NCBI GenBank assembly: GCA_900617105.1
Contig: UYFQ01000342.1
Span: forward strand, 1-48,644
From: Hydrurus foetidus
Taxonomy: Eukaryota
DNA length: 48,644 bases
Direction: 5' to 3'
The notes under the pieces were generated by a model. The model was not told the origin of the DNA. It searched no databases and worked only from the letters and a program-made list of their open reading frames with translations. Both the position numbers and the translations under genes were made by a program. Below, in pieces: positions 4,291-36,732 of the stretch (positions are counted from its first letter, which is position 1; each line of letters opens with the position of its first letter).

Positions 4291-5378
4291 GTGCAGGTGA
4301 TGCTGCACCGCCTGTCTGGAGCGGTATGAAGCATTGAAGAACCTTATCAACGTATCCGGGCATACTGATATCAACATACTGCTGCTCATGATTGAACGCG
4401 ATGGAAAACCCTAGGTACTTACTTCCCGTCCAGTCAATGGTGATAGTGTATAGTTTTTGCAGGGTATCGATCAGGTGTTGTGCACCGTTTTTAGTCGTGT
4501 ATTTGACACCGAAATAATCTACAACTAAGGAGAAATCGGTGCCGTTACTGTCGTGTCGGAAAAGGCACGTGGCGGCAGTTTGGTGATAGCCATGTGCCGC
4601 CAGATGTTGTATGAGCCGGTTTTGCGCCAATAAACCAGCTTGCGGTAGACCATACATGCTCTTGTTAACTTCAAACAGAATTCAGCCGTTGGATAGATAT
4701 GATTTTAATTCATTCTTATCGAAAATGTGTTCCGGAAGAAATTTTGTGTTGATACGCAGGTATTCGGGTCGCTCGAGAGGTGTATTGAGGTGTCAAGAAG
4801 CGCTTGTCGTCTGACACGACGGACTGGAGTAGTTTGACTCCTAACGGCATCGCAGCTGTGCGTGCCGTGGTGGGACCGGGATAGTTAATGCGGTCGCCAC
4901 CAATTGTGCCGCGAACGCGATAAGTACAGCTTTTTCTTTTACCTGAGGGTTGTAGTATGTGCTATCGCTTATGCGGTCGATCAGCTGCTCCGCGAGATGT
5001 ATTGGCTTGATAGTGCCTGTACCCAACAGTTGCTGAATTTCCTCACCTACAGCTCGTTGCCACTGTACTTTGTTCGGTCCATTCTTTGCGGACCGATACT
5101 TCAGTGGGTGGCCTTGTTCATCGAGGTTTAAAGTGGCCGATGATTGTAAAGCTGTTGGTATGATAGACATACGGCGTGCGTCAAGTCGCGTGACCCAATC
5201 AGTTGGTGTTATTCTGACGAGGACGTGCGTTGTTCTGACGAGGACGATGGTGTGCTACCAGTGCAGTATTTGGATTATGAATCGTATTTTGCGGTGCCTT
5301 TACATTCTGCGATTGCTGTGAATCCGTGAGGGGTTGTCGATCTTACGGAATAGCTGATAGTATGGTTTCAATTGCAGC
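4291..5378 (-). pseudogene. C1 reverse transcriptase fragments (frameshifted)
   Basis: MYGLPQAGLLAQ, FSLVVDYFGVKY and TYYNPQVKEK match C2 RT (MYGLPQAGLLAQ, FSLVVDDFGVKY, TYYNPQTKEK). One catalytic Asp is mutated. Confidence 0.9.
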
Positions 5379-5585
5379 TGTAGTCCAGATAGGAAGTAGG
5401 TCGATAGAGGAAAGGTGTTAGTTAGTTACAGGCTCTAAGCTAGAAGCTAGGATAACTTCTACGAGTAGGCTAGAGCTAGCTAGCAGCTGCGCTAGAGATG
5501 TATGTGTACAGTAGGCGGTAGGATCGGATGGATCGGGACAAGGTCCGGTACGGCCCGTAGGCCCGGTATAGCCGGTCCGACCACA
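5379..5585 (-). repeat. G2 3' LTR (207 bp)
   Basis: Direct repeat of 11947-12153; TGTAGTCC...GACCACA. Confidence 0.97.
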
Positions 5586-5607
5586 TCACCCCCACTTATC
5601 TTTTTTC
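5586..5607 (-). other. G2 polypurine tract
   Basis: Minus strand GAAAAAAGATAAGTGGGGGTGA abuts the 3' LTR. Confidence 0.85.
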
Positions 5608-5941
5608 TGAAGAAAAAGAACCTATGACGCGACCACCACGTTTTGTACAAAAATCTAATACAACTAAAACTAACTAAACGGAGAATAAAGAAAAAGATTA
5701 CAAATATGTAAATCTTATAATACATTTAAAATGTAAAAATAAAAATAAAATAAAAATCTATACAAATAGACTGGGTGGTGGGTCGGTCAAGGTGATAAGG
5801 TGGATGCCTAGTACCATGTACTTGCGCACGAGACCTCGATACGTAATTATGTCAGATTTTTACTGACTAAAACCATAAAAACCTCATAGAGGGAAAAATT
5901 AGGAAAAATCTTCAAAAGATAATACGTTCGAGATCAGCAAC

Positions 5942-7966
5942 TTAGGCTGATGTCTCAATGTTTCTGGGAATGAAATGTTTCATTTTGTTATCCCGTAAAT
6001 AATCATGGAGTGCTTCACAGAGCCGTAGTGATTTCCACGGCTCCCATGTATTATGAGAATCATCGTAGTTGAGCCATTTAACATGGAACGACATTGTAGT
6101 CGGTTTCTTGGTGTCACCAGCGTGACCCAGAACTTTCTCAACCACGAACTCCATGTAATCGCGACGAGCAGTGTCAGCAGGTATATCTACCTCTGGGTCA
6201 TAATTGAATATCTTCAAATTTTTGACATGAACACTTCGTGTCTTGTGGTTAACAAGGTTAGCGATAACATACTCGGACCCCTTAAGGGAGACAATACAGT
6301 AAGGGCCATGCCACTTAGTATGTAATCGAGTTGGAGGTCGATCAGTGTATCGGCATAAGACATATGACCCCACGGGGAACACAGTCGCTGATTCAGCTGA
6401 CGCGGCATTTTTAGCATCCGCCGTTAACAAAGTTTGAACCGCAGTTTCAAGTACTTTGTCTTGTACACTTATCAAATCTGATATGTACGTTGATCTTGAA
6501 TGTGTTCCAACACTTAAGTGTGGAGTGAGAATACCACGATTCAAATCAAGTTTGTTCCCGAACAGTAAATGAGCGGGGCAGACACCTGTGCGTCTATTAA
6601 CTGAACCGTTAATGATACGTTGCACGAATGGGATTGACTTAGCATATCCCTCAAGGGTTTGTTTATCAAAAACTAAACCTCTTAAGTGTCTATTCACCTC
6701 TTTGTTGACTCTCTCAACAATTGCATTCTCTTGTTTCGAGTAAGCAAGGGTGAGATTATGTGGTGTCCCACAAAGATCTAAGAAATCTTTGATCAAATCA
6801 TTTGCGAAATGTGATCCTCGATCAGATCTAATCATATTTGGTGAACCAAATCGACCAAAATGCGCAAGCAAACAGTCAGCTGCTGATTTAGCATCTGCGT
6901 CTGCACACCAGAACAATTCTGTCCATCGTGTGAATGTATCGATGATGACTAGGATATAACCTTTGTCAGGAAATGGACCAATAAAGTCAACATTTAGCGT
7001 ATCGAAGATAGCATAATTTGAAGTTGCAAAGTGAGACGCATTGATCTTAGGATCTTTTGCGCTCAACTTTTGACAACACGGACAGTTCTGTATGAACGTA
7101 CGTACATGTTGTTTCATGTGTTTCCATACTTGTTGTAAACTAAACAACCGAGTAAGGGTACGGTCTACGCCGTTGTGACCGACAATTGCATTGTGGCACA
7201 TTTGAATGTATTCTAACTGATCGTCTGAAGCTGGTTCTATGACCGTCAGAGCTGATACAGTGAAAGAAGATGATGAAGTAGGAAGTAATTCCAATTCTTC
7301 TGTTCGTAATGGCAGAGCAATTTCTGTCAAATTAGGACAAAGCCTTGACAGTGCGTCTGCCAAAACATTCGAAGTACCGGGTACGAATACCACGGTAAAA
7401 TCTAGTTCTTGCATAGCAATGAACCATCTCGCCACCATTGAGGTAGGATTTTGTTTCATATATGTTATGTTCAAATGATCCGTATGGATAGTGAACGTAC
7501 GATCTCTGATTAGATAATCGAGTTGTGTACAACAAAAGAAGATGGCATAAGCCTCCTTTTGTATCGTAGACCACCTTATTTGTGTAGGTGTCAACGATTT
7601 GCTAATGAAAGCAATTGGTTGCCAAATGGTACCAACAACTTGGAATAAGACTCCACCGATACCAAAGTCGGATGCGTCTGTATACAAGCGGATGTCTAAC
7701 TTATTGTCATCAATGAAGTACATTAATGGACAACGAGATATAGCAATCTTTGTGTCAACAAATGAGTTGGTGCTCTTTTGAGTCCAAACTACAGCAGAAC
7801 GTCTCGGAGCAGAGTGATCAATCATATCCTGCATTGGCTTAACCAAAGTGGAGTGCATTGGTACAAACTGTCGAAAATAGTTCGCTAAACCCAAAAATGA
7901 CCTGAGTAAGGTTAAATTTTTAGGTATAGAAAAGTTTAAAACTGTTTCTATCTTCTCTTTTGACAT
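5942..7966 (-). CDS. pol: G2 pol: RT thumb, RNase H, integrase and C-terminal chromodomain
   Basis: YTDASDFGIG (RNase H), HHCC zinc finger, SDRGSHF...ENAIVER (DDE), GPY motif, and VEKVLGH...VKWLNYDDSHNTWEP (chromodomain). Confidence 0.95.
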   Translation of the reverse strand: MSKEKIETVLNFSIPKNLTLLRSFLGLANYFRQFVPMHSTLVKPMQDMIDHSAPRRSAVVWTQKSTNSFVDTKIAISRCPLMYFIDDNKLDIRLYTDASDFGIGGVLFQVVGTIWQPIAFISKSLTPTQIRWSTIQKEAYAIFFCCTQLDYLIRDRTFTIHTDHLNITYMKQNPTSMVARWFIAMQELDFTVVFVPGTSNVLADALSRLCPNLTEIALPLRTEELELLPTSSSSFTVSALTVIEPASDDQLEYIQMCHNAIVGHNGVDRTLTRLFSLQQVWKHMKQHVRTFIQNCPCCQKLSAKDPKINASHFATSNYAIFDTLNVDFIGPFPDKGYILVIIDTFTRWTELFWCADADAKSAADCLLAHFGRFGSPNMIRSDRGSHFANDLIKDFLDLCGTPHNLTLAYSKQENAIVERVNKEVNRHLRGLVFDKQTLEGYAKSIPFVQRIINGSVNRRTGVCPAHLLFGNKLDLNRGILTPHLSVGTHSRSTYISDLISVQDKVLETAVQTLLTADAKNAASAESATVFPVGSYVLCRYTDRPPTRLHTKWHGPYCIVSLKGSEYVIANLVNHKTRSVHVKNLKIFNYDPEVDIPADTARRDYMEFVVEKVLGHAGDTKKPTTMSFHVKWLNYDDSHNTWEPWKSLRLCEALHDYLRDNKMKHFIPRNIETSA

Positions 7967-8003
7967 GGATAAACCATCTTTGTCAACGACTCTGCCAACG
8001 TAT

Positions 8004-8819
8004 TCAATACGTGGAAGGCCGAAACGGCATTTTTTTAGCTTTGAGTCTTAGACCCTTAAGTCTAAATCTTGCAAAAACTTTTTTTTTCAAGTTAGTAAGA
8101 AACTCTGCTTCACCCTTGCCATATACTATACAATCGTCGAGATACATCTCGCAACAATGATAGATAAGGCCATAGAGGACCGCCGTTACCATCTGCTCTT
8201 GAAAGTAAGAGGGGGCTCGACACGGACCAAAGGGCAGTCTCGTAAACTGAAAGACCCCCGCAAAGCATATGAATGCCGTAAAAATGCGGTGTGCGGGGTG
8301 TAACGGTGCTTGATGGTAACCAGCGGTTAAATCCATCACACCAAAAATATCCGGTTTTTTATTACCGATCCTCTCAAAGAGGTGTTTGATATTTGGTAAC
8401 GGGAATGAGGCCGGCTTAAGACACCTATTAAGTGGCCGGTAATCGATGCAGGTTCGAAATTTACCGGGTGACTTAGTTACTATTACAGGATGACTGTAAT
8501 AAGCGGCATCTGATCGCTCTATAACCCCTGATGCAAGCATCTCGTCAAGGTTTTCTTTGAGAGCAACCTCTTTTGTTGATGACTGGGGACGTACCGGCGT
8601 ACGGTTTTCGTCTTTTTCCCACAACTCAAGTGGGATGTTAATCTCAAAGGGTCTAAGTGACGCTGGTTTCTCAGCTAATTGATCACTGAAGATGTCTGAA
8701 TATTCAGAACAGAGCTCTCGGAGCTTCCTTTGAAAGCTTTCATCTCCTTCAAAGGTAATCTCTTTGAGGAAATCCTCTGGCCCTTTGGGCAAGTCATCTT
8801 GACTAGGTTTCTCCGCCAA
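8004..8819 (-). CDS. pol: G2 pol: reverse transcriptase core
   Basis: RTCIDYRPLN, MDLTAGYHQ, RLPFG, YLDDC. Confidence 0.95.
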   Translation of the reverse strand: MAEKPSQDDLPKGPEDFLKEITFEGDESFQRKLRELCSEYSDIFSDQLAEKPASLRPFEINIPLELWEKDENRTPVRPQSSTKEVALKENLDEMLASGVIERSDAAYYSHPVIVTKSPGKFRTCIDYRPLNRCLKPASFPLPNIKHLFERIGNKKPDIFGVMDLTAGYHQAPLHPAHRIFTAFICFAGVFQFTRLPFGPCRAPSYFQEQMVTAVLYGLIYHCCEMYLDDCIVYGKGEAEFLTNLKKKVFARFRLKGLRLKAKKMPFRPSTY

Positions 8820-9910
8820 GAAGGGGCAAACGTATCTATCTTGCCATCGTCAATCTCGTCAACTGAGAGTGCGACACCACTGGGCCATAAAGGCTCAGTG
8901 ACATAGTCTAAGGTATCAGAGTCCTCAGAAGTGTTTGTAGGGGTGGGAATCTGGTCGCCACCTAGGTGCGGTGTATCACCCGTACGTTTTGCGAGAATAG
9001 TAGTGACACTATTCAGTCGCTCACAACCTACAACACCACAGGGATCTTGGGTAGCTACTCCCTCGATCTCCATCTGAGTATCGTTACATGTCGACATTGT
9101 ATGGACACAAGAGACGTTGCTCTTCGAAGAAGATTGACCATGCAATATGCTCTTCTTGTTTGGATACTCGGAAGATCCGTGTGTTTCTCTCTTTTTAGAG
9201 GGTGGTTTACCGCCTGGATATTTCAGCTTGTCGTAGTGAGGTGTTAAAGACTCGACTACGGCTGTATCAGGTTCGGTACCCAACGCTATCATACGACGCG
9301 TATATTTGTGTTGAAACAACGGATCGAGTTTATCCAAAGCTTCTTTTCTTTCGAATTCGCGTCTGCGAGCATCGCTCTTTCTCTTATTCTCAGCACTTAG
9401 CTCAGGAGAAATGCCGAATGCAAACGGAGTTAACGTCCAAAAATCATACTTATTTACCGTTTCACGGCTAAATAAAATGTCGATGTCGGTTTTCCGATTG
9501 ACCCTCATGGGTAGGCTGATGCTATGGCATTCACCATCGTAAGAATGAAAAAGGATTTTTAAATCGCAAATTTCGTTATTTAGATAGCATTGGCCATCAA
9601 GACCGCTGCAAACAGTTATGGCTTTAAGAGCAGGATAACATAAGTGAGTGGCATTTAATTTTTCAATCATGTCATATGAAATAAAATTGTCCGAATAATT
9701 GGCCGTATCCATTACGGCCTTCCCCGCGGCGCGCAGCTCGCTAGCTGGGCCTGTCCTGTCCTTATCCTGCACAATAACCGTAACGTTAAGGTGGTGAGAA
9801 GCGAGGATGGAAGGGGTATGTAAAAATTCTTCACGAATAGGTACAAGTGGCTGCACTTCGAGATGATCATCAGTCAGATTAAAGACATCATCATCGAATG
9901 TGGCAGCCAC
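8675..9910 (-). CDS. pol: G2 pol: aspartic protease and spacer
   Basis: AVMDTANYSDNFIS aligns with LLDTGSFAGNF (G4). CSGLDGQC is shared with G1 and G4. Confidence 0.8.
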   Translation of the reverse strand: MAATFDDDVFNLTDDHLEVQPLVPIREEFLHTPSILASHHLNVTVIVQDKDRTGPASELRAAGKAVMDTANYSDNFISYDMIEKLNATHLCYPALKAITVCSGLDGQCYLNNEICDLKILFHSYDGECHSISLPMRVNRKTDIDILFSRETVNKYDFWTLTPFAFGISPELSAENKRKSDARRREFERKEALDKLDPLFQHKYTRRMIALGTEPDTAVVESLTPHYDKLKYPGGKPPSKKRETHGSSEYPNKKSILHGQSSSKSNVSCVHTMSTCNDTQMEIEGVATQDPCGVVGCERLNSVTTILAKRTGDTPHLGGDQIPTPTNTSEDSDTLDYVTEPLWPSGVALSVDEIDDGKIDTFAPSWRRNLVKMTCPKGQRISSKRLPLKEMKAFKGSSESSVLNIQTSSVIN

Positions 9911-9929
9911 ACAGTCATGGGCAAGGTTC

Positions 9930-11384
9930 TTACCCTGGTGTTGTCCCGGCTGAGTGTTGGGAGGAGGGTTGTGTCCCTGCGGGGGTTGTATTTACCCTTA
10001 CCGCCGGACCCACGGCCCTGGTATTGGTTCGCATTGGGGTTTTGATGGCCCCTTTGCTTACCTCTACCACCCCCTGGTTACCCTGGTTACCATAACCAGA
10101 TTGGTTCTGGGAGTTTCCTCCTTGACCCTGGTTGGAACGATCTGAACCATCCGAGGTGTTGGAGTTGTTTCCAGAACCATGGCTGTTCTTGGCGCGCTTG
10201 TTGTCGTTACACATCAAGTAAGGTTTAGAACCTCTGGGGTAGAACTGAACTCGTTCCTCATATCCCGGAAGGACGAGGTTGAGTTGCCATTCAGAGTACC
10301 CCACCGCGGCCCAAGCCATCCCCACTGTAGAACTCTCCCACTCAACTTGGTGATTCGTGTTGGAGTCGGAGTAATACAGTATGGGGCAGTCCGCCAAATT
10401 GTGCGACGCAGCTCCGCACGACCGGCACGGACGAAACATCGGTACGAGCGGTACTTCCGTGGAAGCACGGACAGAGAGTCCGTGCTGCGTCGGAACGTAC
10501 GAGCTAGGAGTACGCACAGTAGCAGTGACTGATCTCGACGAAGCGGATGGTGTAGGTGAGGGTGCTTTAGCACTCGCTCTACTCGTCTCCCTCTTACCAA
10601 CGTCTGGTGGAACTGCTGATGCAGGAAACGAGTACACCGTGTCCGGGTTGCCATAGCTTTTGATGAGGTTCATCATTGCCCTAGCCTCGGCAAGAACCTG
10701 ACCAATGCGTAGCATAGTCGAATACCACGTATGAGGTGGGGAATTGTCAGCAGCTTTCGCTTTCAGGTAATCCTGTTGGATTTGACTACCCTTGGCTAGG
10801 CGCTTCTCCAATATCAATATGAGCTCAGCATGCTGAGTCTCAGATAATGGTCCCTTAGACCTCTCATAAGTGCTCACAAGTTCGTTGTAACGTACGAATG
10901 TGGCATTCTCATGATCGTGGTTAGCGATCTGATAATGGAAAGGAACTTGGCTAAAGCTCTCTGCCAGAGTACATTCTCCCAAACCATTTGGAGAGAAGTA
11001 CTTTATTATCAGTTTGGCTACCTGAAGTACCGACAATTTAGTCTGCCAATCATGGCGTTGTCGTCTATCGATGATGTTAAATTCAGGATCGATCATGATC
11101 CTGAAATTAAGTAACTCGATTGCCTGCTTCTGCATGCAATCGGTCAGCTTCATCAACGGGTACCTCTGAGCCTGTTCGTAGAACTCAGTCGCATCAGCTT
11201 CATCAATGAAGTTATGCCTGAGGACGAACACCTCACCCTGGAGTTGCATCGTCGAGGGGAAAGCTGGGAACAGCGAGTTCGACATTGAGATAGTCGACTC
11301 GTTGAGCGCGGCTAAAGCTGCCTGACGTGCAATCTCCTCTTCGTCCGGATTCGGATCAGGGTTTGGGTTAGGTGGTGATGACAT
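9930..11384 (-). CDS. gag: G2 gag with zinc knuckle
   Basis: CRSCGAASHNLADC and an N/Q/G-rich tail; position downstream of the 5' LTR. Confidence 0.88.
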   Translation of the reverse strand: MSSPPNPNPDPNPDEEEIARQAALAALNESTISMSNSLFPAFPSTMQLQGEVFVLRHNFIDEADATEFYEQAQRYPLMKLTDCMQKQAIELLNFRIMIDPEFNIIDRRQRHDWQTKLSVLQVAKLIIKYFSPNGLGECTLAESFSQVPFHYQIANHDHENATFVRYNELVSTYERSKGPLSETQHAELILILEKRLAKGSQIQQDYLKAKAADNSPPHTWYSTMLRIGQVLAEARAMMNLIKSYGNPDTVYSFPASAVPPDVGKRETSRASAKAPSPTPSASSRSVTATVRTPSSYVPTQHGLSVRASTEVPLVPMFRPCRSCGAASHNLADCPILYYSDSNTNHQVEWESSTVGMAWAAVGYSEWQLNLVLPGYEERVQFYPRGSKPYLMCNDNKRAKNSHGSGNNSNTSDGSDRSNQGQGGNSQNQSGYGNQGNQGVVEVSKGAIKTPMRTNTRAVGPAVRVNTTPAGTQPSSQHSAGTTPG

Positions 11385-11946
11385 GTCTAATCACTTATCG
11401 ATGTAAATCTCACTGAAAGTCAATGGAGATCGATAACCCCTGCTCAGAAAAATTTTTCAAGAGCTTCGCCTCGTTCACAAACGGGTACTGTAACGTCAGT
11501 AACAACGAATGAAGCAATTCTACCCAACTCTTGAACTGAAAAGTTCTATGGCGTGAAAGCCAAATTTAGAGTGGTAGAAAAATTGGGTGCCTGTTAAGGT
11601 CAAAGACGTTGCTCAACGTCGACAAAAAGAAGTCTATAGACTAATCTTATGTCTCTGGTGATGAATCTGTGATTCGATCGACCAGCGGAGCAAGTCTAAA
11701 ATGACTTCTGGGAAGGATAAATCAACTTCGACCAAAATGTCAAGTTTGGAAGAGCCCAATGCACGGGGATTCCAAGAAAGCAGTTACTCTGACTTTCTCT
11801 AACTTAGACTAGGTCTTCTGAGCCAATGGCTGCAGAAGAGAACGGCTCGAAAGTCGTTGAGCAAACGCTCAGAAGTCTTATCTACAGGTTGGGACGAGTA
11901 GACGGAATGAGAGGTAGCAGAGAAAAGAGTGGACTAATAGCGCTAT

Positions 11947-12153
11947 TGTAGTCCAGATAGGAAGTAGGTCGATAGAGGAAAGGTGTTAGTTAGTTACAGG
12001 CTCTAAGCTAGAAGCTAGGATAACTTCTACGAGTAGGCTAGAGCTAGCTAGCAGCTGCGCTAGAGATGTATGTGTACAGTAGGCGGTAGGATCGGATGGA
12101 TCGGGACAAGGTCCGGTACGGCCCGTAGGCCCGGTATAGCCGGTCCGACCACA
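11947..12153 (-). repeat. G2 5' LTR (207 bp)
   Basis: Direct repeat of 5379-5585. Confidence 0.97.
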
Positions 12154-12157
12154 CAGC

Positions 12158-14340
12158 AGTGATAGGTGGGTCATTGTTTGTGTCAGGTGTGTCGAGAGAC
12201 ACCCTCCTGATCTGAGCCGTTAGTTCTGGAATGATGAGAGGGTCGTATGGCACCCTCTGTTCTGCCACTGAGAGTTGGTGTGCCAGAACATCAGGGCAGT
12301 CAACAATTTCTAGTATACAATTGATCGGATACATCGCTGCTAATTGCTTGAGAGTGTCTGTTAGCGTTAGGAGGACATGTTCGGTAGGATGCATAGGTAT
12401 GTTGCTGTCCGGTACTGCGGCCGCTACATTGATGGCTTGCGTGAGATCAGTGACAGCCCCGCAGATAAAATCATGAGGCGATGGGCCAGGAAGTTCTAGG
12501 CCCTGCGAGAACCATGCAAGCGTGTCTGTAACACGAACACTACGTGTGGCCGTTGCCCATACGCAGTAGCATCGGTAGTGTAATTGAACAGGTCCGAGGT
12601 AGTAGCCATGCGTGCCGTGTGGTGCCAATGATCCCCTTGTGTTTGGTTTGTCGTGAATGACGACTTTCGTGCCCGCTGGTGCGATTGGATGAGCTGCAAA
12701 ATCGAATGCCCCGCCGTGTAGTCCAGCATACGCCGAAATACTCGTATTAGATGGATACGGAAGAAGGTGATTAAGGCACAGTTCCGCCTGCGGCAGGAGC
12801 TCGTCCCATAATGCTAGTGGGAAGTCGTGTGCAACAGTGCACAGCGTTGCAATAAAATGATTTTTAAATGTCCGGATGGCTCTCTCTGCCCGAAGAGCTC
12901 GATGTTGATGAGGTGCTCAATATTGGATGCTAATATTATTTGTGCGCGCGAATGTTTCTAATGCATGAAGTGTTTCGTTGTCTAACCTCTGGAATATAGG
13001 CTTTCGTCCCAGTTTTGCGAAAAAGTTGATCGTGCGTTTATCGCAATGTATTCTAAATGGTGTCGTGTGCGCAAGGGCTCCACATGTATATACCCATCTA
13101 AGCCTGACACAATGATATATTGCATACCGGAGAATGATGTGACCGGAAATTTACCAGTTAGATCTGAATGCATCGTGCCGGTCAATGTAAATACGTGAGT
13201 GTATGCGTTGTTATCGATGGAAGTGTCCGGTAGTGGTCGTGCATCGTCGACTTGATCATGAGGGTTTTCTGGAAACAGTGAGATAAATCGCTTCGTTGAC
13301 TTTTGTCCCTGTCTATTTTGGTCAAGGTGTCCTAACGCGGTGGGAATTGTGTGCTGAGGATGCGCTGTTACCAGTGCAGTTGTGAGGCGGGACAGTGATG
13401 GGAGATAATTCGCGCGAATGGCTTGTGTGAATGATGACAATGCCAGACTTCCAAGTGCCGGGTGTATGAAGTGCACGAACGCGCTAGGAGCAGGATTATA
13501 TATAGCTGTAGATGTGAGAGCCTTAGCTGGCGTGTTTGGAAGCTGGATGTGCCATTGATTTGCTGTTTTGCATTACTAGTCTTCCGCCATGTGTAATAGT
13601 AATCTGTTGTCCAGTGAACGTAGCTGTGCAATCAGCATTGCATAGCTCAGCATGCACAGCTCAGAAATGGACAGTAGTGATATTGAAAGGTCTTTGTCCT
13701 GAAAGGTATGGGCTTTAATAGGATGATCGAGGTAAGGAAGATGTAGGTTGCCCACCTTGAATGCTTAAATATGATCACCGTTGGGTAGTTGTACAGTTAA
13801 ATGATCGCTTTGAATATTCTGAAGCATAGAGCTGTCAGAGCGTCGCAGTAGAGTATGCGTCGATCCAGTATCCGCACACGCTGTGTGAGTAGCAGTAAAG
13901 GAGGCAGTGTTGGCTGAAGCAATTTCATTAATAAGGTTGCATCTACCCTTACTGCTGTTCCCTAGGAGCGGGTGCGAGCATTACGCCGTTTTTCACCAGG
14001 TGTAGCTGTTGATCCATCCGCCACCGTGGACGGGGTTGTAGCTTTCAAATGCGCGTCGGTGTATGTGGTATTGTCTGCTAACATTTTGAAGCATGCGCTT
14101 CCGTGATGAGTGTTGTTGTGGCAGTGTAGATAGCAGTAGTGAGTTGGCTTTTTTGTACCGCTGTCCGCTTTTGCATTGTTTGTAACGATGGCGTGAGCGC
14201 CTGTTGTACAGTTCTCGTCAGCAGTGCCGCGAATGCCGGCGATTGGAAATAATCAGATCCTGCGGCTGCTGGGACCACGTTGGCTGTGTATCCTGCGCCA
14301 GCCCAAGAAATTTTGCCTCGCATTGCTGTGCATGTTGATT
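12158..14340 (-). pseudogene. C1 gag (internally deleted), protease and integrase remnants
   Basis: ACADTGSTHTLL (about 13850-13885), MHSDLTGKFPVTS and APHGTHGYYLGP. Gag jumps from PINMHSNARQNF directly to AGYTAN...SPAFAALL, so roughly 250 codons are missing relative to C2. Confidence 0.88.
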
Positions 14341-15525
14341 GGCATTGGTGTTGTCTCAATTTGGGACTGTGAAAATTTAATAACAACTGTTGATTGCGTG
14401 CTGCAATGCTGACGTGTCAAACGAATTGTACTATTCGACGAACATTGTTATTAAGTTATGATCGTGCAGGTGAAGAAGAAAGCATTCACGCAATACTGAT
14501 GGCTACGCTTGGCCGTCGGCAAACAATGAGGTGATTGCATTTCATGCGGTTGTAAGCCGGATGTCCGGCACGCTACCCGATCATGAGCACGGAGACCGAA
14601 GGGAGAGACCGAAAAAAAGCCTACAATTTTTCGTGGTACAACCGCGCGACATCATTGCAACAGCACATTGATTCAAGTCATGTGAAGTCATATTATATCG
14701 AACAATTGAAAACCGAACTTTTCTCATCTTCCTCCACGACACCAACGGCATATTTGATCATCTTTCCGATAGTCATGCCTCTACAGCCTTCATGTACTTG
14801 TCTATAACTTCATCTGAGTGCTTCACACAAGAATGAGGAGTCCATCTCTATGTCGTGTCAAGCACTCAGATGAAGTCATTGTCAAGTGTATGAACACTTT
14901 CGACGCCTTACGATCGGAGATATGTGGTATACAAGCGGACGAAATTTGTCGAGTGCAGGTAAAAGAGTGATCTATTTTATGGGGGCACGAAGTACGAAGG
15001 TCTGTACCCGTCCTGGACGGGGTCGCAATATTTCTTACTACAGTGATCGCGAATTCACTACTTGTATTCAAAATGAGAGGATTACAGAAGAAGATGGTGG
15101 GCATTCTACTTTGTCAACACTAATCTGCTTTTCCTAAATCAAAACTAAATGGTTTTACAAAATGAAGTCGGAGTCGCTACTTTCGCCTGTGCTTTGTCGT
15201 GTTGGGATTAGCCACTGTGTAGTGTGTAGGACAATTCACGGGGACCTTAAAAAGTTTCCCATATAAATTTTGCCATAAAATATGCGGGAAAAGGAAAACT
15301 TTCCCATAAATAGGGGTAGTTTAGGGTAAATTTCGAACCTTATACCATAAAATACTTATACCGTCTCCGACCCTATTATTTATTTTGTTTGAGTGGTGTG
15401 TTGCGTAAACCAACTTTTTTTCCCGAGTGCTATGACGCTCTCGTACTTTCAATCTCATCATAGGAAAGATACGACAGCGATGAAGGCACCACATTTTTCA
15501 CAGGTGACATTTGTGTTTTCGGAAC

Positions 15526-23609: not shown

Positions 23610-24035
23610 TTTCAGTTTTTGACAGAAGTTGAAGCTCACAGCTGGAATAAATTTTGATCTTCTCTCGCGTGTCAGGATAAATACTCAATCAAACTCTCGA
23701 TGATATCATCGACAGAATAAGGCGAGGCGAGTCACAGGTCAAAGGATTTAAAAGAAAAGTTATGAGACATCTATCTCTTGAACCCCATGAATCATGAACT
23801 GAACAACTCTTGTACGTTGTACAGTGGGTGACCTCGTAAATTCAAAACTCCCCCAGAACCCAGATTTGGGTGACATAAATTTTGACTTTCCAAAAAGTTT
23901 ATGTCACCCAAATCTAGGATTCGAGGAGAATCTAGACAGGGGGGGGGTCTAGATTTTTTTTTGGAATCGCAGATTTTAAAAAATTTATGTAACCCAGATT
24001 TGAGTGACCCAGAAAAAAAAATCTAGACACCCCCC

Positions 24036-24335
24036 TGTTGATCCGCAGATTAAATTGCGCACCAAAGGTGAAACGAATGTACGTGTTTCACAGGTGTTGG
24101 AATTAAATTATGCGGGATGGAAGTCAATACGCATGGCTAACTGTTGCTGCAATTGACAGTGTTTGAAAATGATAGTTGCGTACGATGTGTAGTGTATGTA
24201 CGCTACGTACAATGTGTGTTACATGTGTTGTACGTGCGCCCTGGTGTGTACGCTGCGTACATGTGTTGTACGTGCGCCCTGGTATGTACGCTGCGTACGG
24301 TGCGTGTTAACTATGTTGTACGTGCGCTATCAACA
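24036..24335 (-). repeat. C2 3' LTR (300 bp) with an internal about 38-bp tandem duplication
   Basis: TGTTGAT...ATCAACA; direct repeat of 29272-29571. Confidence 0.96.
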
Positions 24336-24484
24336 CACCCTCTCAAACATGGTGCATGCTTGAACAGATATGTATTCGTATTTTCAGGACAAAAAGACAG
24401 AGTTGTGACGTGATTGGTCAGTGATGATCAATCACAACCGAATGGCCGACGGTTCGATCCCCGTAAGGGCGCTCGCCGGCGGTG

Positions 24485-26971
24485 TTATGGGTGTCGGCCT
24501 ACGAAGCACTGTGGGTAAATCACCAACTCGTCCTTCAAATCATCATAATTAGGGGGAGTTTCGGTGGTTGAAGCCTTTTTGTTTCGATGAGTGAGTGCAC
24601 GAGATGCTGAGCTTGTGGTGTTTGTGGCGTACTGGGCAGGAGGAATGTGAACGAGCAGCGGCATAAGCTTTTGATGTAAGTGAACAGGCAGAGGTTTTGT
24701 GAAAAAATCAGCAAGATTGTCGGCTCCTTTGCGCCATGTGACTGTGTATTGTCCTTGACGAATTCTATCACGAATCCAGTGGAAACGCATGTCGATGCTT
24801 TTGGTGCGTTTTGGCTTTATGGTGTCTAATGCGATTCCCTCAGCGCATTTGTTATCGCACAGAATGGTTGTTGACGGTTGAGGATATCCGAGCGATTGGA
24901 GAATATGCCGGAGCCAAATTCCCTCTTGGCCAGCGTGAAAGAGAGCTGCATATTCAGCTTCAGCGACAGAGGCCACGACAGCAGGTATGATAGAACTGAG
25001 TGCGTGTACAGAACCATTGATGTGTGTGGGTTGACCAATATTTCCCAGGTAAAAGAGAGCTCCAGCTACAGAACGAGCTCCGGGACGAGAGAGATAGGAA
25101 GCGTCCGACTGAATATGTAAGATCATATCGCATGCATAGTATCGGAGACCATTGTTGGGATAGCGTGAGCAGTAAGCTAAGAGGCGTTGCGCGGCCTGGA
25201 GAACGTCTTGTGTAGGTTGCGCTTGTAGGGACGACAGGTGTGTTACCGCCGGCAATATGGTTACATCTACACCTCTGGCGTAATAGAGAAGGGAGCCAAC
25301 AATCTCTTGTAATGTAGTAGTTTCTGCGGGTGATAGACGTGTACTGGTGTCGATGTGTGGTGTCTGTTGTCCGACGCCATACTTGGGTGGGATGTATACA
25401 GCTGGAGAATTGGCTCCAATTTTGAGTAATGGCGCGAAGCGCTGAAGCACTTTAGCAATATAACCTGGCATGCTGAGCGTAACAGTACGATGACGTTGAT
25501 CAAAGTCAATCGAGAAACCGAGATACTTGGAACCTGTCCAGTCAACGGTGATGGTGTATAAGGCTTGGAGCGTTTGAATTAAGTGGTTGACGCCGTCCAT
25601 ATTTGTGTATTTGACTCCAAAGTCATCGACGACAAGCGAAAACACCGTTCCATTAGTCACATGGCGAAAGAGACAAATAGTATCGGTTTGATGATAGCCT
25701 TCGGATGCCAGGTGAGTGATGAGTCTTTGTTGTGCGAGGAGTCCTGCCTGGGGGAGCCCATACATACCTTTGTTGACTTGGAAGAGGATAGCATTATTAT
25801 GAAAAAATTGCTGAAGGTCGTGTTGATGAATTACTGTAGACGGGAGAAATTTTGACGCGATGCGCAGGTACTCAGGGCGAGGAAGTGGCGTGTTTAGGTA
25901 ATAATCTTTGATATCAATGGTGAGCCATTTGCTTCCGTCGGATATGACTGATTGAAGAAGGATTTTTACCAGGGGCATTGCAGCGGTTCGAGCAGTTGTC
26001 GGGCCGGGATAATGGATACGATCGCCACCGATGGTGCCACGGATGCGGTATGTTCTTTCACCTGAAGCATTTTGCTTTTCTTTTGTCTGAGGGTTGTAAT
26101 AAGTTGTATCCCGTCTGCGATCAATAGGTTGCTGAGCCAGGAAAATGGGCCGAATCGTTTCAGTTGCAAGAAGTCTGTCGAGCTCTTCGGCTTCGGCTTG
26201 TTGCCACAGTAGTGCATTGGACCCCGCTTTGGCGGTTGAGTAACGTAACGGTTGGCCGTGGTCGTCAAGATTAAGCGTGGTAAGGGCAGCTGCGAACTGA
26301 GGTGGGTGGGTAGAATTTCTGTAGATCTGAGGTGGGAGCGGTACCGATGGTCGTCGTGGATGATGGCTTGTGATGCGAATGTTGGGAGAGTCATATTGGG
26401 TGGAAGTGTTCAGATGTTGGTGTGGACCGGCTGGTATCTGGACTGATGGGGACACAAGAGGTTGAGGCACTTCGTGTTCTGCAAACGGAGGGGATAAAGG
26501 AGGTAGATCGGTAGTGCTTATATTGGGGACCACCCTCTGTTCTTGGCGAGAGTCCGGCAAAGGAAGAGGGATAGCAGCGACTGAAGGTGCTATGAGTGTG
26601 GTGTAATACGTTGGAGCAGGGAGAGCTAGCGCTGGTGCGGGTGTACTTACGGTATCCGGATCGGTACCCACAGTTCCGGCCGGGTCTGTACCCAAGATCC
26701 CGGCCAAATCGGTAATGACGGATTCTATGACGGAAACTCCGGGTTGCGAATTGGTACGAAATTGTGATAGTGCTGCAGCGCGGGGCCGAGGTAGTATCCT
26801 GGGACTCCATGCGGTGCCCAGGAGGATCGAACAGTGGGTTTGTCGTGGATAAGGATACGAGTTCCGGCTGGAGCGATGGGATGTCGAGTGAAGTCTAGCG
26901 CACCGCCGTGGATTCCAGCATACGCTGATACAGCGGGGTTGGGACTGTAGGGCAGCAGATGATTCAGGCAA
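24485..26971 (-). CDS. pol: C2 pol: spacer, reverse transcriptase and RNase H (the first about 70 codons of this ORF are probably not the true frame)
   Basis: IDIKDYYLNTPL, MYGLPQAG, VVDDF, SDASYLS, SVAEAEY, KSIDMRFHWIRD, NLADFFTK. Confidence 0.93.
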   Translation of the reverse strand: MPESSAALQSQPRCISVCWNPRRCARLHSTSHRSSRNSYPYPRQTHCSILLGTAWSPRILPRPRAAALSQFRTNSQPGVSVIESVITDLAGILGTDPAGTVGTDPDTVSTPAPALALPAPTYYTTLIAPSVAAIPLPLPDSRQEQRVVPNISTTDLPPLSPPFAEHEVPQPLVSPSVQIPAGPHQHLNTSTQYDSPNIRITSHHPRRPSVPLPPQIYRNSTHPPQFAAALTTLNLDDHGQPLRYSTAKAGSNALLWQQAEAEELDRLLATETIRPIFLAQQPIDRRRDTTYYNPQTKEKQNASGERTYRIRGTIGGDRIHYPGPTTARTAAMPLVKILLQSVISDGSKWLTIDIKDYYLNTPLPRPEYLRIASKFLPSTVIHQHDLQQFFHNNAILFQVNKGMYGLPQAGLLAQQRLITHLASEGYHQTDTICLFRHVTNGTVFSLVVDDFGVKYTNMDGVNHLIQTLQALYTITVDWTGSKYLGFSIDFDQRHRTVTLSMPGYIAKVLQRFAPLLKIGANSPAVYIPPKYGVGQQTPHIDTSTRLSPAETTTLQEIVGSLLYYARGVDVTILPAVTHLSSLQAQPTQDVLQAAQRLLAYCSRYPNNGLRYYACDMILHIQSDASYLSRPGARSVAGALFYLGNIGQPTHINGSVHALSSIIPAVVASVAEAEYAALFHAGQEGIWLRHILQSLGYPQPSTTILCDNKCAEGIALDTIKPKRTKSIDMRFHWIRDRIRQGQYTVTWRKGADNLADFFTKPLPVHLHQKLMPLLVHIPPAQYATNTTSSASRALTHRNKKASTTETPPNYDDLKDELVIYPQCFVGRHP

Positions 26972-28158
26972 AGCTCGGCCTGCGGCAGCAGTTCATCCCA
27001 AAGCGTCATGGGGAACTCTGAAGCTACTGTGCCCAGAGTGGCTATGAAGTGGTTTTTGAAAGTGCGAATTGCTCGTTCGGCTTTGAGTGAGCGGTGTGTG
27101 TGCGGCGGGCAATACTGTATGCTGATGTTGTTGGCAGTTGCGAATGCTTCTAAAGGACCGGATGTCTCGTTGTCCAAGCGTTGAAAGGCGGGCCGGCGGC
27201 CACGCTGAGCGAAAAAGTTTAGCGTCTTTTTGTAGGCTGTAACGTACTCTGTATGATGCCTTGTTCTCATTGTTTCAACATGGATGTAACCGTCTAAGAC
27301 TGACACAAATATGTATTGAGCACCATTGTGTGATGTTACCGGAAACCGACCGGTGAGGTCGGAATGTAAAGTATCGGACAGAAGGACAACTCGTGTGTAA
27401 GCGGTGAGCTGTGTGGGAGCGTCAGCTGGCACGAGATCCTCATCGGTGTCGTTTGTGTCAAAGATGGTGACAGGAATCTGAGTTGAATTTTGACCTTGGC
27501 GATGTTGATCCAAATGTCCCTGAGCTGTGGCGATGCTAATTGGCGGATGAGCATTTAACATGAGTGATGTGAGTCGCGGGTACGAGTGAAGATAGCCACG
27601 ACGAACAGCTTTCGTCAAGGTAGTGAGTGAGGGGCTACCAAGTGAAGCGTGCGTGAATTTTACAAACGAGGCATCTGATGACAGTGCGTACGCAGCACGT
27701 ACTGTGGGAAGGAGTGCAGTGTTGAAGGCTAGAAAAGGTAGAGTCCATAGGTTGTCGTCGGGCGATTTGAGGCCACGTAGTACGGGGCGGTTGCTGAATG
27801 TGATTGAGGCATCGGAGGCCGAGAAAGTAGCGACACATCCCATTTTACAAAGTTGCGATATGGATAATAGGGAAGTATTGAGAACGTCATTTGGAAAGAT
27901 GTGACACGGCACAGTGTGCGGGAGGTTTGGAAAATCGAGGTTGCAAGCACCGATAGATGAGATAGTAGCGCCGTTGGGGAGGAGCACATGAAGACTTGTT
28001 TCGATGCTATTGATATATGGGGCATCTGATGCACGGAGCAACGTGTGCGTGGATCCAGTGTCGGCACAAAGGGAAGGGGGGGCGACTGAAGAGGTTGTTT
28101 GAGTTAAGTTACACCGTGCAGGAAGATAACAGAAAAGCTCTTGCGCCGCCCCTAACCG
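26725..28158 (-). CDS. pol: C2 pol: protease and integrase, in frame with gag behind a single TGA
   Basis: LCADTGSTHTLL, LHSDLTGRFP, RLDNET and AERAIRTFKNHF. The homology breaks after GPALQHY (deletion plus frameshift relative to C1). Confidence 0.9.
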   Translation of the reverse strand, partial: RLGAAQELFCYLPARCNLTQTTSSVAPPSLCADTGSTHTLLRASDAPYINSIETSLHVLLPNGATISSIGACNLDFPNLPHTVPCHIFPNDVLNTSLLSISQLCKMGCVATFSASDASITFSNRPVLRGLKSPDDNLWTLPFLAFNTALLPTVRAAYALSSDASFVKFTHASLGSPSLTTLTKAVRRGYLHSYPRLTSLMLNAHPPISIATAQGHLDQHRQGQNSTQIPVTIFDTNDTDEDLVPADAPTQLTAYTRVVLLSDTLHSDLTGRFPVTSHNGAQYIFVSVLDGYIHVETMRTRHHTEYVTAYKKTLNFFAQRGRRPAFQRLDNETSGPLEAFATANNISIQYCPPHTHRSLKAERAIRTFKNHFIATLGTVASEFPMTLWDELLPQAELCLNHLLPYSPNPAVSAYAGIHGGALDFTRHPIAPAGTRILIHDKPTVRSSWAPHGVPGYYLGPALQHYHNFVPIRNPEFPS

Positions 28159-29253: not shown

Positions 29254-29271
29254 GATGAGGTTAATTCCAAC

Positions 29272-29571
29272 TGTTGATCCGCAGATTAAATTGCGCACCA
29301 AAGGTGAAACGAATGTACGTGTTTCACAGGTGTTGGAATTAAATTATGCGGGATGGAAGTCAATACGCATGGCTAACTGTTGCTGCAATTGACAGTGTTT
29401 GAAAATGATAGTTGCGTACGATGTGTAGTGTATGTACGCTACGTACAATGTGTGTTACATGTGTTGTACGTGCGCCCTGGTGTGTACGCTGCGTACATGT
29501 GTTGTACGTGCGCCCTGGTATGTACGCTGCGTACGGTGCGTGTTAAATATGTTGTACGTGCGCTATCAACA
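29272..29571 (-). repeat. C2 5' LTR (300 bp)
   Basis: Direct repeat of 24036-24335. Confidence 0.96.
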
Positions 29572-29867
29572 CCCCTGTCTAGATTCTCCTCGAATCCTAG
29601 ATTTGGGTGACATAAACTTTTTGGAAAGTCAAAATTTATGTCACCCAAATCTGGGTTCTGGGGGAGTTTTGAATTTACCTCGTAAATTAAAATCTCACCC
29701 AGATTCATCAGATCTGAGTTACATAAACCTTACGCAGATCATAATCCTCGAGAAATCTAGACCCCCCCCCCCTGTCTAGATTTATCTGCGTTACGCAGAC
29801 GACGACTTCGTGATATCTATCCTCGAAGACATCATTTTTGCGCTAATTCCACAGCAGAACAGCAGCT

Positions 29868-32800
29868 ATGATAGCGGGTGATGAAGAAAATGATGAGCTT
29901 CTCTTCATCTGTGTAATTTTCGCAGCAGCAGTCTGGTATAACTCGTTGAGGCATAGGAGTAGATTGACCAGATCCGCGATTCTCGAGTCAAGATTAAGTC
30001 CTTGGATCAGGCTGCATCAGCACGGTGATGACAGGTCTTTCCTAGAGCTAACGGGCTTCAGTAGGGTTGCTTTCAATAACCTGAAAATCGCAATATTCGG
30101 CGTTAATGATAATCGAGTCGGATGGGTCGGTCGGCCGTCAAATTTAGATCGTAATGGTGAGCTTGGTCTATACCTATTTTTCGTGGGATCACAAATGAAA
30201 ATCAAGTATCTCTGCCTGATATTCGGCATCGTTCCAACAACAGCGACGGTTACTATTTACAAAGTCATGAGGCGGATTTGCAGGATCTTAAAGACACATC
30301 CTGCCGCAAGGGTGATCTTTCCAGATGACAACCAGATGCGAGAATTTGCTGAAATGATACAGATTAGAGAGCCAATGGTGAATAACGTCATTGGTTTCGT
30401 TGATGGGCTGAGTCTACCTGTGCAGTGCTCGGATGATATACTGCTGCAGAACGCCGCTTACAATGGATACAGTCACGACACGTGCTGCACAAACGTGTTC
30501 GCCTTCTCTCCATATGGAAAGATAATGTACAGTGCATACAATTATCCTGGGTCTTGGCATGACAGCACTGTTGCCCAGGATCTGGTAAACATAGTCATAT
30601 CAAGGATAGGAATCTATGCGTTGTGTGTCGATCAGGGATTTCCATGCAGTGGAGATCTCCACGGCAGATTTGTTGGACCCATGTCAAAGAAAATGAAAAG
30701 AAGGTTGTCACCTGAGCTAGCTGAATACTTGCTTCCACTACATGAAAGATACATATCTTTACGCCAAGCATCGGAATGGGGTATGCGTGCATTACAGGGA
30801 ACGTTCTCGAGATTGAAAAGTAGAATGACCTCTAGGACAGGAATAAGAAAGAAGATTATTTTCAGCATCATTCTGTTACACAATTTTAGGACAGAATTCG
30901 TTGGATTAAATCAGATAGCTACCGTTTTTAATCCGCATTACGATCAGTACATTAACTTAGATACATACGACAGAATGTGGTCTTGGGCGGGGCCTAGGAC
31001 GTTGGAGCTAAAAGTGGTGGTCGGTTGATGCAAGCGGTGGGCAAGGGAAGGAAGGATAGGTGGAGTTAACTTGTGTTAGTATTTTACAGTTGAGTATCTA
31101 CAAGTGATGTGTACGCTAAAGTGCATTCACGTCATATGTGGAACTAAGACCTAAAAGTGGAATCTGGGCGTAATATACCTATTGTACCTAGTTAACCTAG
31201 ACACATTGTATCCCCTTAGGAATGCAATAAGGCTACACTACCCCTTCTTCCTTTTTTGAAGATCTTTGATATGATATACAAAAAAAATGAAAAAAAAGAA
31301 AAGATATGTAAAACATATATATGAGATATAGATGAAACGATGATGTCAGACTTTTACTGACTAAACTCTCCAAAAAAGACCCGTAGGTAAAAAAAAATAG
31401 GAGAGAATCCTCATGGATAAAGTTTCAAATATATAAGTCATCTATGTTGCTTATTGATTAATTTAGTCATGTTATTATGACGTAAATAATCATGAAGTTT
31501 ATCAACATCACGAAGACTTGAATAAGGTTCCCAAGTGTTTTTGTCTGAAGGGTAATTTAACCATTTGACTAAAAACTCTATGTGGGTACGTTGGTGTTTG
31601 CCACGATGATCAAGAATGTCTTCAACAAAGTATTCCATGTGATCACGTCGTGCAACATCCAACGGATTTGTGATTGAAGGGTCAAATAGAAAAGGTTTCA
31701 TTGCAGAAACATGAAACTCTGAAGTTTTCTGAGTGACTAAATCATAAAGTGTGTAACGCGAATTTTCGCCACTAACGACTTTTAATGGGCCTCTCCAATG
31801 CGTGTGAAGACGTGAAGGAGGGGATCCATCGCGATAGTGCACTAAGACATAAGAGTCTTTTGGATAATCTACATGCTGAAAAACTTGAGACTGACTTTGA
31901 TGAAGCAAATCTGTGCGAAGAAGTTCTTTAGCAGAAGCTTTAAGAAGACTGTCTTGCGTTTTGAGTAGATTGCTCATACGCTTTGACAAAGGTTTGTCAT
32001 CAGTAACATTTCGCTCAGCAGGAGGTAAAAAAATACCTCTATCGAGTTTGAGTACATTTCCGAAAAGAAGTTGAGAAGATGATATTTTAAACGATCACTG
32101 TGATTCGAATTTAAAATTCGTTGCACAAATGGTAGTGACGTTTTATAATCTTCTAGTGTGACATTATCGAATGTTAATGCACGAAGATGTCTATTAACTT
32201 CTTTATTCATGCGCTCAACAATAGCATTTTCTTCTTTAGAATATGCTAAAGTAAGACAATGTTGAGTGCCAATAAGAGTTAGAAACTCTCTAATAACTTC
32301 GGAAATGAAGTGTGGCCCATTATCAGAACGGAGTTGGAGAGGTGCGCCGAAACGACCGAAGTGTTGCAAGAGGCATTTAGCTGTTGAAAGTGCTGTAGCA
32401 TCTTCTGTATGAAACAGTTCAACCCATCTTGTGAACGTATCGATAATTACGAGTACGTACCCGCCGTCTGGAAACGGTCCTATGAAGTCTATGTTAAGGC
32501 ATTCCATAGGTGTGTAAGTAGAAGTTGAGAAACCATGAGCATGTATTGGTATCTTTAACATACTCATTTTCTGACAACACGAACAGTGATCTATGAACCA
32601 CCTGACGTGCTGACGCATATATTGCCATACTATTTTTTGTCAATGAGACGCTTTAAAGTGCGCTCAAGGCCAAAATGCCCAACTTGTGAATTGTGTACTT
32701 TACTGATTGTATTGTACTGATCACGTGTTAGTTTGAATTTTTCAATAGTATTAGCAGACATGATTGCATCAGGAGTATATTCCTGAGGGAAATCAACCAT

Positions 32801-35800: not shown

Positions 35801-36732
35801 GAAGCGTTGTAAACGATTGATGGTTGGAAACATGGATTACATCAACTGGTTTAAATGGAGTTCCATTTGAAAGGAGGACCTCCATTACCCGTAGTACTTC
35901 CTGACGAGAGGGCACGGCGCTCAACTTAGGAGCTCTCTCACCCGTTTGCACATAGTGCTGAGGTGGTGCCATCGAACGAGGAATCTCAGCCGAAGCTGGT
36001 GTCGCAGACGAATCTGGTGTCGCAGCCGAAGCTGGTATCTCAGCCGAAGCTGGTGTCGCAGTCGAAACTGGTGATAACGTTAGAGCGGATAAAGCAGATA
36101 AAACAGGAGCATCAATAACAGACGAGACCGCAGGCTCCGAATTCCGCTGAGGAATCGGTGCAGACAGGTCGCCGGCGGGGTCCTGAGCCGCAGGTGGCCC
36201 AGGAGACTCGATGCTATCTCCTCCACGATTGTGGTGCTCCTCGTAACGTTGTCGGAAGGCGACGGCGACAGCTCTAGGAGGCTGTCGTTGTCGGCGAAGG
36301 GAATTGATGGTGCTAATCCTCTTGTCCTGGCGTCGGAGAGCCATTGTCTTCGACTGTCGGAATTACGTGATGGATTAAAAATTGATGGAGCGGAGAAACG
36401 AACTTCTCTCGACGAAAAAACTTTGGTATCGACCAAATATCGATATTGTGGTCTTGGGCGGGGCCTAGGACGTTGGAGCTAAAAGTGGTGGTCGGTTGAT
36501 GCAAGCGGTGGGCAAGGGAAGGAAGGATAGGTGGAGTAAACTTGTGTTAGTATTTTACAGTTGAGTATCTACAAGTGATGTGTACGCTAAAGTGCATTCA
36601 CGTCATATGTGGAACTAAGACCTAAAAGTGGAATCTGGGCGTAATATACCTATTGTACCTAGTTAACCTAGACACATTGTATCCCCTTAGGAATGCAATA
36701 AGGCTACAAGAATACAGAGGTATTTCGCATAG
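29868..36732 (+). CDS. DDE_Tnp_4 (PIF/Harbinger-type) transposase, 29868-30975 plus 36713-36732, interrupted by G4 near its C-terminus
   Basis: IGFVDG, PGSWHDS, CVDQGF and RQASEWGMRALQGTF. Removing G4 and one AGAA restores ...DTYDRIQRYFA*. Confidence 0.92.
30976..31237 (-). repeat. G4 3' LTR (262 bp)
   Basis: Direct repeat of 36447-36708. Confidence 0.97.
31438..34872 (-). CDS. pol: G4 pol (PR-RT-RH-IN-chromodomain), split by single-base frameshifts near 32630 and 32030
   Basis: LLDTGS, YIDDC, HTDASDYG, SDNGPHF and EYFVEDILDH...VKWLNYPSDKNTWEP. Confidence 0.93.
34873..36344 (-). CDS. gag: G4 gag (one frameshift near 35260) with zinc knuckle
   Basis: CTGCGRLGHFVATC, ATPASAEIP repeats and poly-Ser. 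Confidence 0.85.
36447..36708 (-). repeat. G4 5' LTR (262 bp)
   Basis: Direct repeat of 30976-31237. Confidence 0.97.

Follow-up and report, generated by a model that had tools for sequence, protein, structure and literature searches.

Which primer starts reverse transcription in two Copia-order retrotransposons of Hydrurus foetidus, C1 and C2, in which the nucleotides that follow the 5' LTR are complementary to a segment of that same LTR? Both elements lie on the minus strand of a stretch of 48,644 nt (hereafter, the window), for which an earlier note, made from the letters alone, had claimed self-priming similar to that of the fission yeast element Tf1. They belong to a divergent Copia-order lineage in which each primer position is paired with the LTR of the same element, and this lineage was used to evaluate the claim.

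Structure of C1 and C2 and of their primer positions

C2 is bounded by a 5' LTR of 300 nt (29272..29571, minus strand; TGTTGA...TCAACA) and by a 3' LTR (24036..24335, minus strand) with a G run alongside. The two copies of this direct repeat (D7), 29571-29272 and 24335-24036, are identical at 299 of 300 positions, the single difference being located at 29547, and because a second LTR is present, the position of the LTR end is fixed. A 4-bp target duplication GGGG is compatible with the flanking DNA and is ambiguous, since it lies inside the G run. The polypurine tract AGAGGGTG is found at 24336..24343 (minus strand), and GGGTG likewise precedes the LTR start in 47 related loci. The G run that holds C2 sits between perfect inverted repeats of 107 nt (29572-29678 and 23836-23942), which are themselves palindromic, and a similar G-run palindrome occurs near 29755-29790, adjoining an ORF for a DDE_Tnp_4 transposase (29847-31028).

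The gag-like ORF of C2 (28159..29253, minus strand; ATG at 29253), for which the Pfam search gave no match, occupies the same place as the tblastn matches of the relatives. Protease and integrase (26725..28158, minus strand) were placed by motif positions, the frame being broken near 26760, while reverse transcriptase and RNase H (24485..26992, minus strand) were placed by motif positions and by a Pfam match of the RT to PF07727 (RVT_2) with an E value of 2e-9 and 37.8 bits, above the cut-off. We take DTGS to represent the protease, the D, D and E motifs the integrase, VVDD the RT, and the D, E and D residues the RNase H. With DTGS and D-D-E upstream of an RT of the RVT_2 type, the domain order GAG-PR-INT-RT-RH is that of Ty1/Copia elements, and C2 also shows the structural features of this group, namely direct LTRs, inverted termini and a polypurine tract. 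The integrase of C2 itself had no Pfam match; among the 66 homologous protease-integrase sequences of the query alignment, PF25597 (SH3_retrovirus) was detected in 18 and rve in one, and a comparison of the integrase alignment with solved structures gave no match. No Chromo domain was found in the C2 ORFs in the Pfam search. When compared with P0328, to which it is 95% identical, pol shows a gap of about 50 codons near 26760 that is out of frame, so this copy of C2 is probably defective. A stop a short distance ahead of the protease closes the pol frame in 36 of 36 relatives, none of which has a long open frame preceding that stop, and TAG followed by G is present just past the gag end in C1 (13948-13972), C2 (28146-28170) and several relatives. 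Judging from these frames, pol may be expressed via splicing or another recoding step.

C1 is a decayed element. Its inferred 5' LTR (14388..14662, minus strand; termini TGTTG..CAACA) has its end in common with C2; with no second LTR in the window, the end at 14388 was deduced from the shared ATCAACA end and from the inverted terminus TGTTG..CAACA. The decayed internal region (4291..14376, minus strand) contains an inserted Gypsy element (5379-12153) and is truncated at 4291 by the LTR of another one.

Directly after the terminal CA of the C2 LTR, the putative primer-binding position (29261..29271, minus strand) reads GTTGGAATTAA from 29271 to 29261, and its exact reverse complement is located inside the LTR at 29342-29332. 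This LTR arm (29332..29342, minus strand), which would be the paired 3' part of a self-primer, forms a duplex of -12.1 kcal/mol with the site. The same layout was found in C1, where GTTGTTATTAA at the putative primer-binding position (14377..14387, minus strand; read 14387-14377) pairs with TTAATAACAAT in the LTR arm (14444..14454, minus strand; read 14454-14444) by 10 Watson-Crick pairs plus one G-U. The loop between arm and LTR end is 60 nt in C2 (29272..29331, minus strand) and 56 nt in C1. On all these points the coordinates, pairings and lengths given earlier could be reproduced. Adjusted for composition, the chance of such a match is about 2e-4 per LTR for C1 and C2 each. A conserved hairpin within the loop was considered and rejected, as the mean fold z score over 43 elements is -0.26 despite a value of -3.1 in C2. 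When the first 250 nt were folded, the stem reached a probability of at least 0.5 in 37 of the 43 elements and stayed below 0.5 in six, including C1. Searches of Rfam gave nothing at the LTR and primer site, and in the flank only hairpin matches below threshold.

Pairing and covariation across the lineage

Relatives were collected from metagenomes, taking the best 80 of at least 524 confirmed loci together with 14 contigs filed in prokaryote MAGs, that is, 94 loci. A readable GGGTG polypurine tract with LTR and leader was present in 47 of them (22 read directly, 19 across overlapping contig ends and 6 downstream of the RT), and the 47 loci that lacked it were dropped. Removal of five near-duplicates left 42 non-redundant relatives, and the set of 43 elements consists of these 42 minus L026, plus C1 and C2. 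L026 has no stem and its LTR seems to be followed by DNA that does not belong to the element; it was counted as a miss in the stem-blind test described below. In L016, the second-ranked stem, of 11 nt and located directly after TATCAACA, was chosen by hand over an A/T-rich one of 12 nt. Most relatives are metagenome contigs collapsed in assembly, in which a single LTR separates the pol end from the gag start; their LTR ends rest on the inverted terminus and not on flanking DNA, with 11 of 41 matching the terminus at fewer than five of six positions. Among 19 upstream-only loci, seven have a stem of 10-13 nt after a CA or TA end, L023 has one of 8 nt, in L009 and L029 the stem was seen in their 3' part, and the remainder start too late or show no stem (L020, L046, L075, L088).

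The named protein relatives are chrysophytes, Spumella vulgaris (54% RT identity) and Ochromonadaceae sp. CCMP2298, and the nearest Atlas clusters include a few members of Bacillariophyta and Rhodophyta. No relatives were found in the viral contigs searched. No RNA data set with the element was listed among 20 sequencing runs, which is uninformative on expression. The 14 contigs of this eukaryotic retrotransposon lineage that sit in prokaryote MAGs (L081-L094) are probably placed there by binning contamination. With LTR ends anchored on the stems, the termini of the 43 elements are TG..CA in 28, TG..TA in 8, TA..TA in 5 and other in 2, non-canonical ones being found in L027, L047, L055, L060, L067, L069 and others.

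In a blind search for the top perfect inverted repeat within 700 nt after the LTR start, a repeat of 9-15 nt (mode 12) was obtained in 41 of the 42 non-redundant relatives. Its right arm directly follows, within 1 nt, a match to the LTR terminus of at least five of six positions in 30 of 41 relatives, against 1.16 expected, and a match of four of six in 37 of 41, against 6.79 expected. The stem-blind test, which starts from hexamers resembling the LTR terminus and ignores stems, reached a complement of at least 10 nt in 29 of 42 relatives, the null share being 0.0014. Perfect pairing is widespread: 41 of 42 relatives keep a perfect duplex of 9-15 nt while their sites are diverse, which is the covariation that the earlier note had asked to be checked. 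The agreement of the 11-nt stem of C2 with the 11 nt of Tf1 is coincidental, and this length is not special given the range found in the 41 relatives.

The pairing is specific to each element. The site is complementary over at least 10 nt to the LTR of its own element in 38 of 43 cases and to LTRs of other elements in 9 of 1806 cross comparisons, and 40 distinct 10-mers occupy the primer site in the 43 elements. The duplex begins at the first base past the LTR and is almost purely Watson-Crick: the first ten pairs, 430 cells over the 43 elements, comprise 425 Watson-Crick pairs, one G-U and four mismatches. At pair positions 2-8, at least 85 changes were counted on each side on a quick RT tree of 42 rows, from which L003 was excluded for its too short RT piece. 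Both tallies are anchored on the stems found and measure turnover of letters, not an independent rate of pairing. Since almost all of the first ten pairs are Watson-Crick, with a single G-U in 430, we infer that the primer site is copied from the arm and not kept by selection on structure alone. An A at arm position 9 in 32 of 43 elements is a positional conservation beyond what self-templating alone explains.

Sister families were followed in contigs from four public runs, which come from at most three studies and of which two contain near-identical DNA. Among the 40 variants listed out of 281 rows, none falls in either arm, and with the narrower stretch variants were listed only at 29288-29317. 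Two loose ends of sister families carry variant primer sites, with their LTR partners outside the view.

The RNA start, a predicted mechanism and its rivals

Upstream of the arm, C2 carries the motif CATAA (29344..29348, minus strand), which has the form CAYWA in the lineage and predicts an RNA start at A29347, or at T29346 by the diatom rule CAY(+1)A; in C1, CATAA is found at 14456..14460 (minus strand) with a predicted start at A14459. The motif, which was spotted by eye before counting, lies 14-18 nt from the 3' end of the arm in 38 of 43 elements, and its A is 15-18 nt from that end in 35 of 43, against a background of 3.6% per 4-nt window. It agrees with the diatom initiator, given as CAY(+1)A / TCAH(+1)W in the excerpts of PMC4686930. 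No stem extends upstream of the A of the motif in any of the 43 elements, and inspection by eye revealed no outstanding TATA-like column upstream of it.

A boundary of conservation is found at the same place, so that motif and boundary are both 4-6 nt upstream of the LTR arm. Sister families fit only from 29260/29261 to 29344-29348 (six listed pieces, runs X7 and X8), and loose ends pile up at 29348-29350 in four of four runs, this boundary being independent of the motif. With the narrower stretch, 26 of 32 pieces end at 29344-29350, among the 32 listed out of 87. Mean identity in 15 pairs of relatives was 0.57 upstream of the motif, 0.72 from the motif to the end of the site and 0.53 downstream, where the pairs are hand-picked and non-independent, the value of 0.72 is inflated by the anchors and two pairs reverse the trend. 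For self-priming fission yeast elements, the excerpts of 10.1101/2022.12.06.519325 describe a comparable boundary close to the U3-R junction and past the PBS. From the position of the motif and the boundaries of the sister families, transcription of C2 probably starts at 29346-29347, 4-5 nt upstream of the 29342 predicted in the earlier note.

The covariation across the lineage strongly supports self-priming, and we consider it likely that elements of the C1/C2 lineage prime reverse transcription with the 5' end of their own RNA rather than with a tRNA. All steps of the mechanism that follows are drawn by analogy with Tf1. Transcription of C2 would start at A29347 or T29346, and of the first 15-16 nt the last 11 would fold onto 29271-29261, leaving 4-5 unpaired bases at the 5' end. 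The RNase H of the element would then cut between 29332 and 29331, comparable to the cut of Tf1 between bases 11 and 12. C2 contains the catalytic motifs of RT and RNase H, and cleavage by the latter is predicted from its motif. The predicted primer of C2 (29347-29332) would be 16 nt long and those of the lineage 15-17 nt, with an unpaired 5' tail that is mostly 3-6 nt in the predicted primers. From its new 3' end, RT would extend from the terminal CA of the LTR across the loop, which has 60 nt in C2 and 23-95 nt in 40 relatives, to give strong-stop DNA. Plus-strand synthesis would copy the still-attached primer, and the primer site would be re-templated from the LTR in each cycle, so that arm and site could drift together without G-U intermediates. 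The Tf1 primer, according to the title of a report, is said not to be removed.

Two other readings accept the duplex and assign it a different role. It seems improbable that the duplex primes while CAYWA is a poly(A) signal of the UAA type, the arm being the 3' end of the transcript (cut at C/A) or part of a longer R, and the primer the 3' end of the RNA or a long 5' fragment. In two diatoms, according to the excerpts of PMC6413133, UAA predominates among the near-upstream poly(A) elements and is located 10-35 nt ahead of the cut; in our set, TAA is found at 12-17 nt from the end of the arm in 33 of 43 elements, and CA spans the 3' end of the arm in 22 of 43 and AA in 8. However, the most constant part of the motif is the CA that precedes TAA, and there are CAC variants without TAA at that place. 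Moreover, the similarity of the sister families ends immediately upstream of the motif, where R should go on, and a primer from the 3' end would not be copied into the site, which would make the scarcity of G-U harder to explain. We regard it as less probable still that the duplex is a structural hairpin of the U5/R-leader that serves packaging, controls translation or protects the site, and that a host tRNA, a tRNA half or another small RNA is the primer. Half-tRNA priming without TGG occurs in several Copia lineages according to the excerpts of PMC6317226, and C2 does have a TGG two bases past its LTR, the usual geometry of a tRNA site, which was overlooked when a non-tRNA primer site was claimed. 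Within the lineage, TGG falls among the first 8 nt in only 4 of 43 elements, and the TGG of C2 was rejected as a tRNA site for its lack of conservation. The 40 different 10-mers, which change even between close relatives, do not correspond to one or a few tRNAs: judged from the sites and not from tRNA sequences, a conserved TGG-initiated whole-tRNA site is not what is found, and the diversity, again judged from the sites alone, also speaks against a half-tRNA site of the Osser, Bryco or Bianca type. No tRNA genes were found within the 48,644 nt of the window. The stem, besides, starts exactly at the LTR end, and it nearly lacks the G-U pairs that a merely structural stem would be expected to tolerate.

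That the match arose by chance, or by a local inverted duplication through template switching or assembly, is practically negligible. A/T-rich tracts match more easily, and for 19 of 47 related regions the reading was joined over overlapping contig ends, but the expected frequency per LTR and the null share stand against 29 of 42 observed, and the 22 loci that need no joining show the same pattern; the lineage-wide counts rule this origin out. Self-priming by the RNA 5' end is the reading that we compare with known systems below.

Known self-priming systems and other elements of the window

Self-priming has been demonstrated for Tf1, in which the first 11 nt anneal and RNase H cuts between nucleotides 11 and 12 (excerpts of PMC7175516). 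In Tf1/Tf2 of Schizosaccharomyces pombe and the Tf1/sushi group (Ty3/Gypsy chromoviruses), like here, a complement derived from the LTR faces the tract right after the 5' LTR and there is no tRNA site, and the Tf1 mechanism fits the geometry of the C1/C2 lineage. In contrast to Tf1/sushi, our elements have the Copia domain order and RVT_2, and no chromodomain was seen, which places them outside that group. The duplex of 9-15 nt (mode 12) is part of a predicted primer of 15-17 nt with an unpaired 5' tail, whereas the primer of Tf1 is fully paired. Tf1 RNA forms a 'pretzel' of three duplexes (excerpts of 10.1101/2022.12.06.519325), and its two flanking duplexes were not detected lineage-wide in a simple duplex test of 42 elements, with mean z scores of -0.25 and -0.13; z reached -2 or less in 2 of the 42 for the one duplex and in 5 for the other.

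The earlier note had not known of self-priming being described for Copia, and this has to be corrected. For plant Ty1/Copia elements, self-priming was predicted for Houba and Osr-1 (PMC6317226, citing Capy 2005), and 89% of 203 elements of the TAR lineage, to which both belong, are predicted self-primers in the excerpts of the same paper. The sequence criterion for TAR given there is the same as here, with at least 10 complementary nt at 0-5 nt past the LTR. TAR is described in the excerpts as a land-plant lineage with a single ORF and a 5-bp target duplication, whereas our elements have a very divergent RT (37.8 bits to RVT_2), gag and pol in separate frames or separated by a stop, and chrysophyte relatives.

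A second likeness is to CoDi, the Copia elements of diatoms (Blackbeard, Surcouf; Maumus 2009). The 5.5 kb and the 300-nt LTRs of C2 are within the CoDi range as far as the excerpts give it, some CoDi families there lack TG/CA ends, as do some relatives here, and the Atlas clusters nearest to the C2 lineage include Bacillariophyta; the likeness is by description and not by reference sequence. Neither a primer-binding site nor a tRNA is discussed in the main text of the CoDi paper, in the parts available (PMC2806351). In the fungal GalEa Copia elements there is no tRNA site and the Conserved Hairpin Site (CHS) is a palindrome pairing with downstream sequence, its authors having found no LTR complement (both from excerpts of PMC5445492). 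The lack of a tRNA site in Copia elements is shared with C1 and C2, but in these two the site is no palindrome and pairs with an LTR segment upstream of it. Self-priming in diatom or chrysophyte Copia elements was not found described in the open-access library searched: PMC8147415 contains no term for self-priming or primer site, and the excerpts of PMC3601003, PMC2864245, PMC2206039 and PMC7466962 make no such claim.

What is new is a further, stramenopile-associated Copia lineage predicted to be self-priming, beyond plant TAR. It is plausible that the trait arose here separately from TAR and Tf1, and we lean, with reserve, towards a large Copia lineage of stramenopile protists whose self-priming would be independent of Tf1/sushi and TAR and would have its own design: a capped primer of 15-17 nt from a host-type initiator with its 3' 9-15 nt paired, no pretzel, a re-templated site, and primer and site drifting free of host tRNAs. 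If this is true, self-priming arose at least three times among LTR elements, twice of these within Copia, and a Copia-type RT/RNase H makes its own primer, which in the literature examined has so far been shown only for the Gypsy-type Tf1. From the dozens of compensatory variants found in nature, start, cut site and primer can be predicted exactly and in testable form. Where annotation retains LTR candidates only if they have a primer site of the tRNA type, as in the excerpts of PMC7466962, it would be expected to miss this lineage in protist genomes. That self-priming had already been predicted for plant TAR, and that it is based on sequence here, limits the significance.

The Gypsy elements of the window resemble the GalEa CHS more than C1 and C2 do. 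In three of them (4063-4074, 11936-11947 and 36436-36447, minus strand), the last A of the 5' LTR is the first base of a perfect 12-nt palindrome, the centre of which differs between the elements (AATACCGGTATT, AATAGCGCTATT and AATATCGATATT), with no TGG within 5 nt and an LTR complement of at most 6 nt. Only 22 such 12-nt palindromes occur in the first 39 kb. They are similar to the fungal GalEa CHSeq1, and through it two RNA molecules could pair with each other at the primer site. The LTRs of the two complete Gypsy chromoviruses are near-identical, and these elements have 4-bp target duplications, GCTG and TTCT, at 5372-5378/12154-12160 and 30969-30975/36709-36715. Finally, the region 39979-47463 contains long arrays of tandem repeats of 5, 10 and 54 nt.
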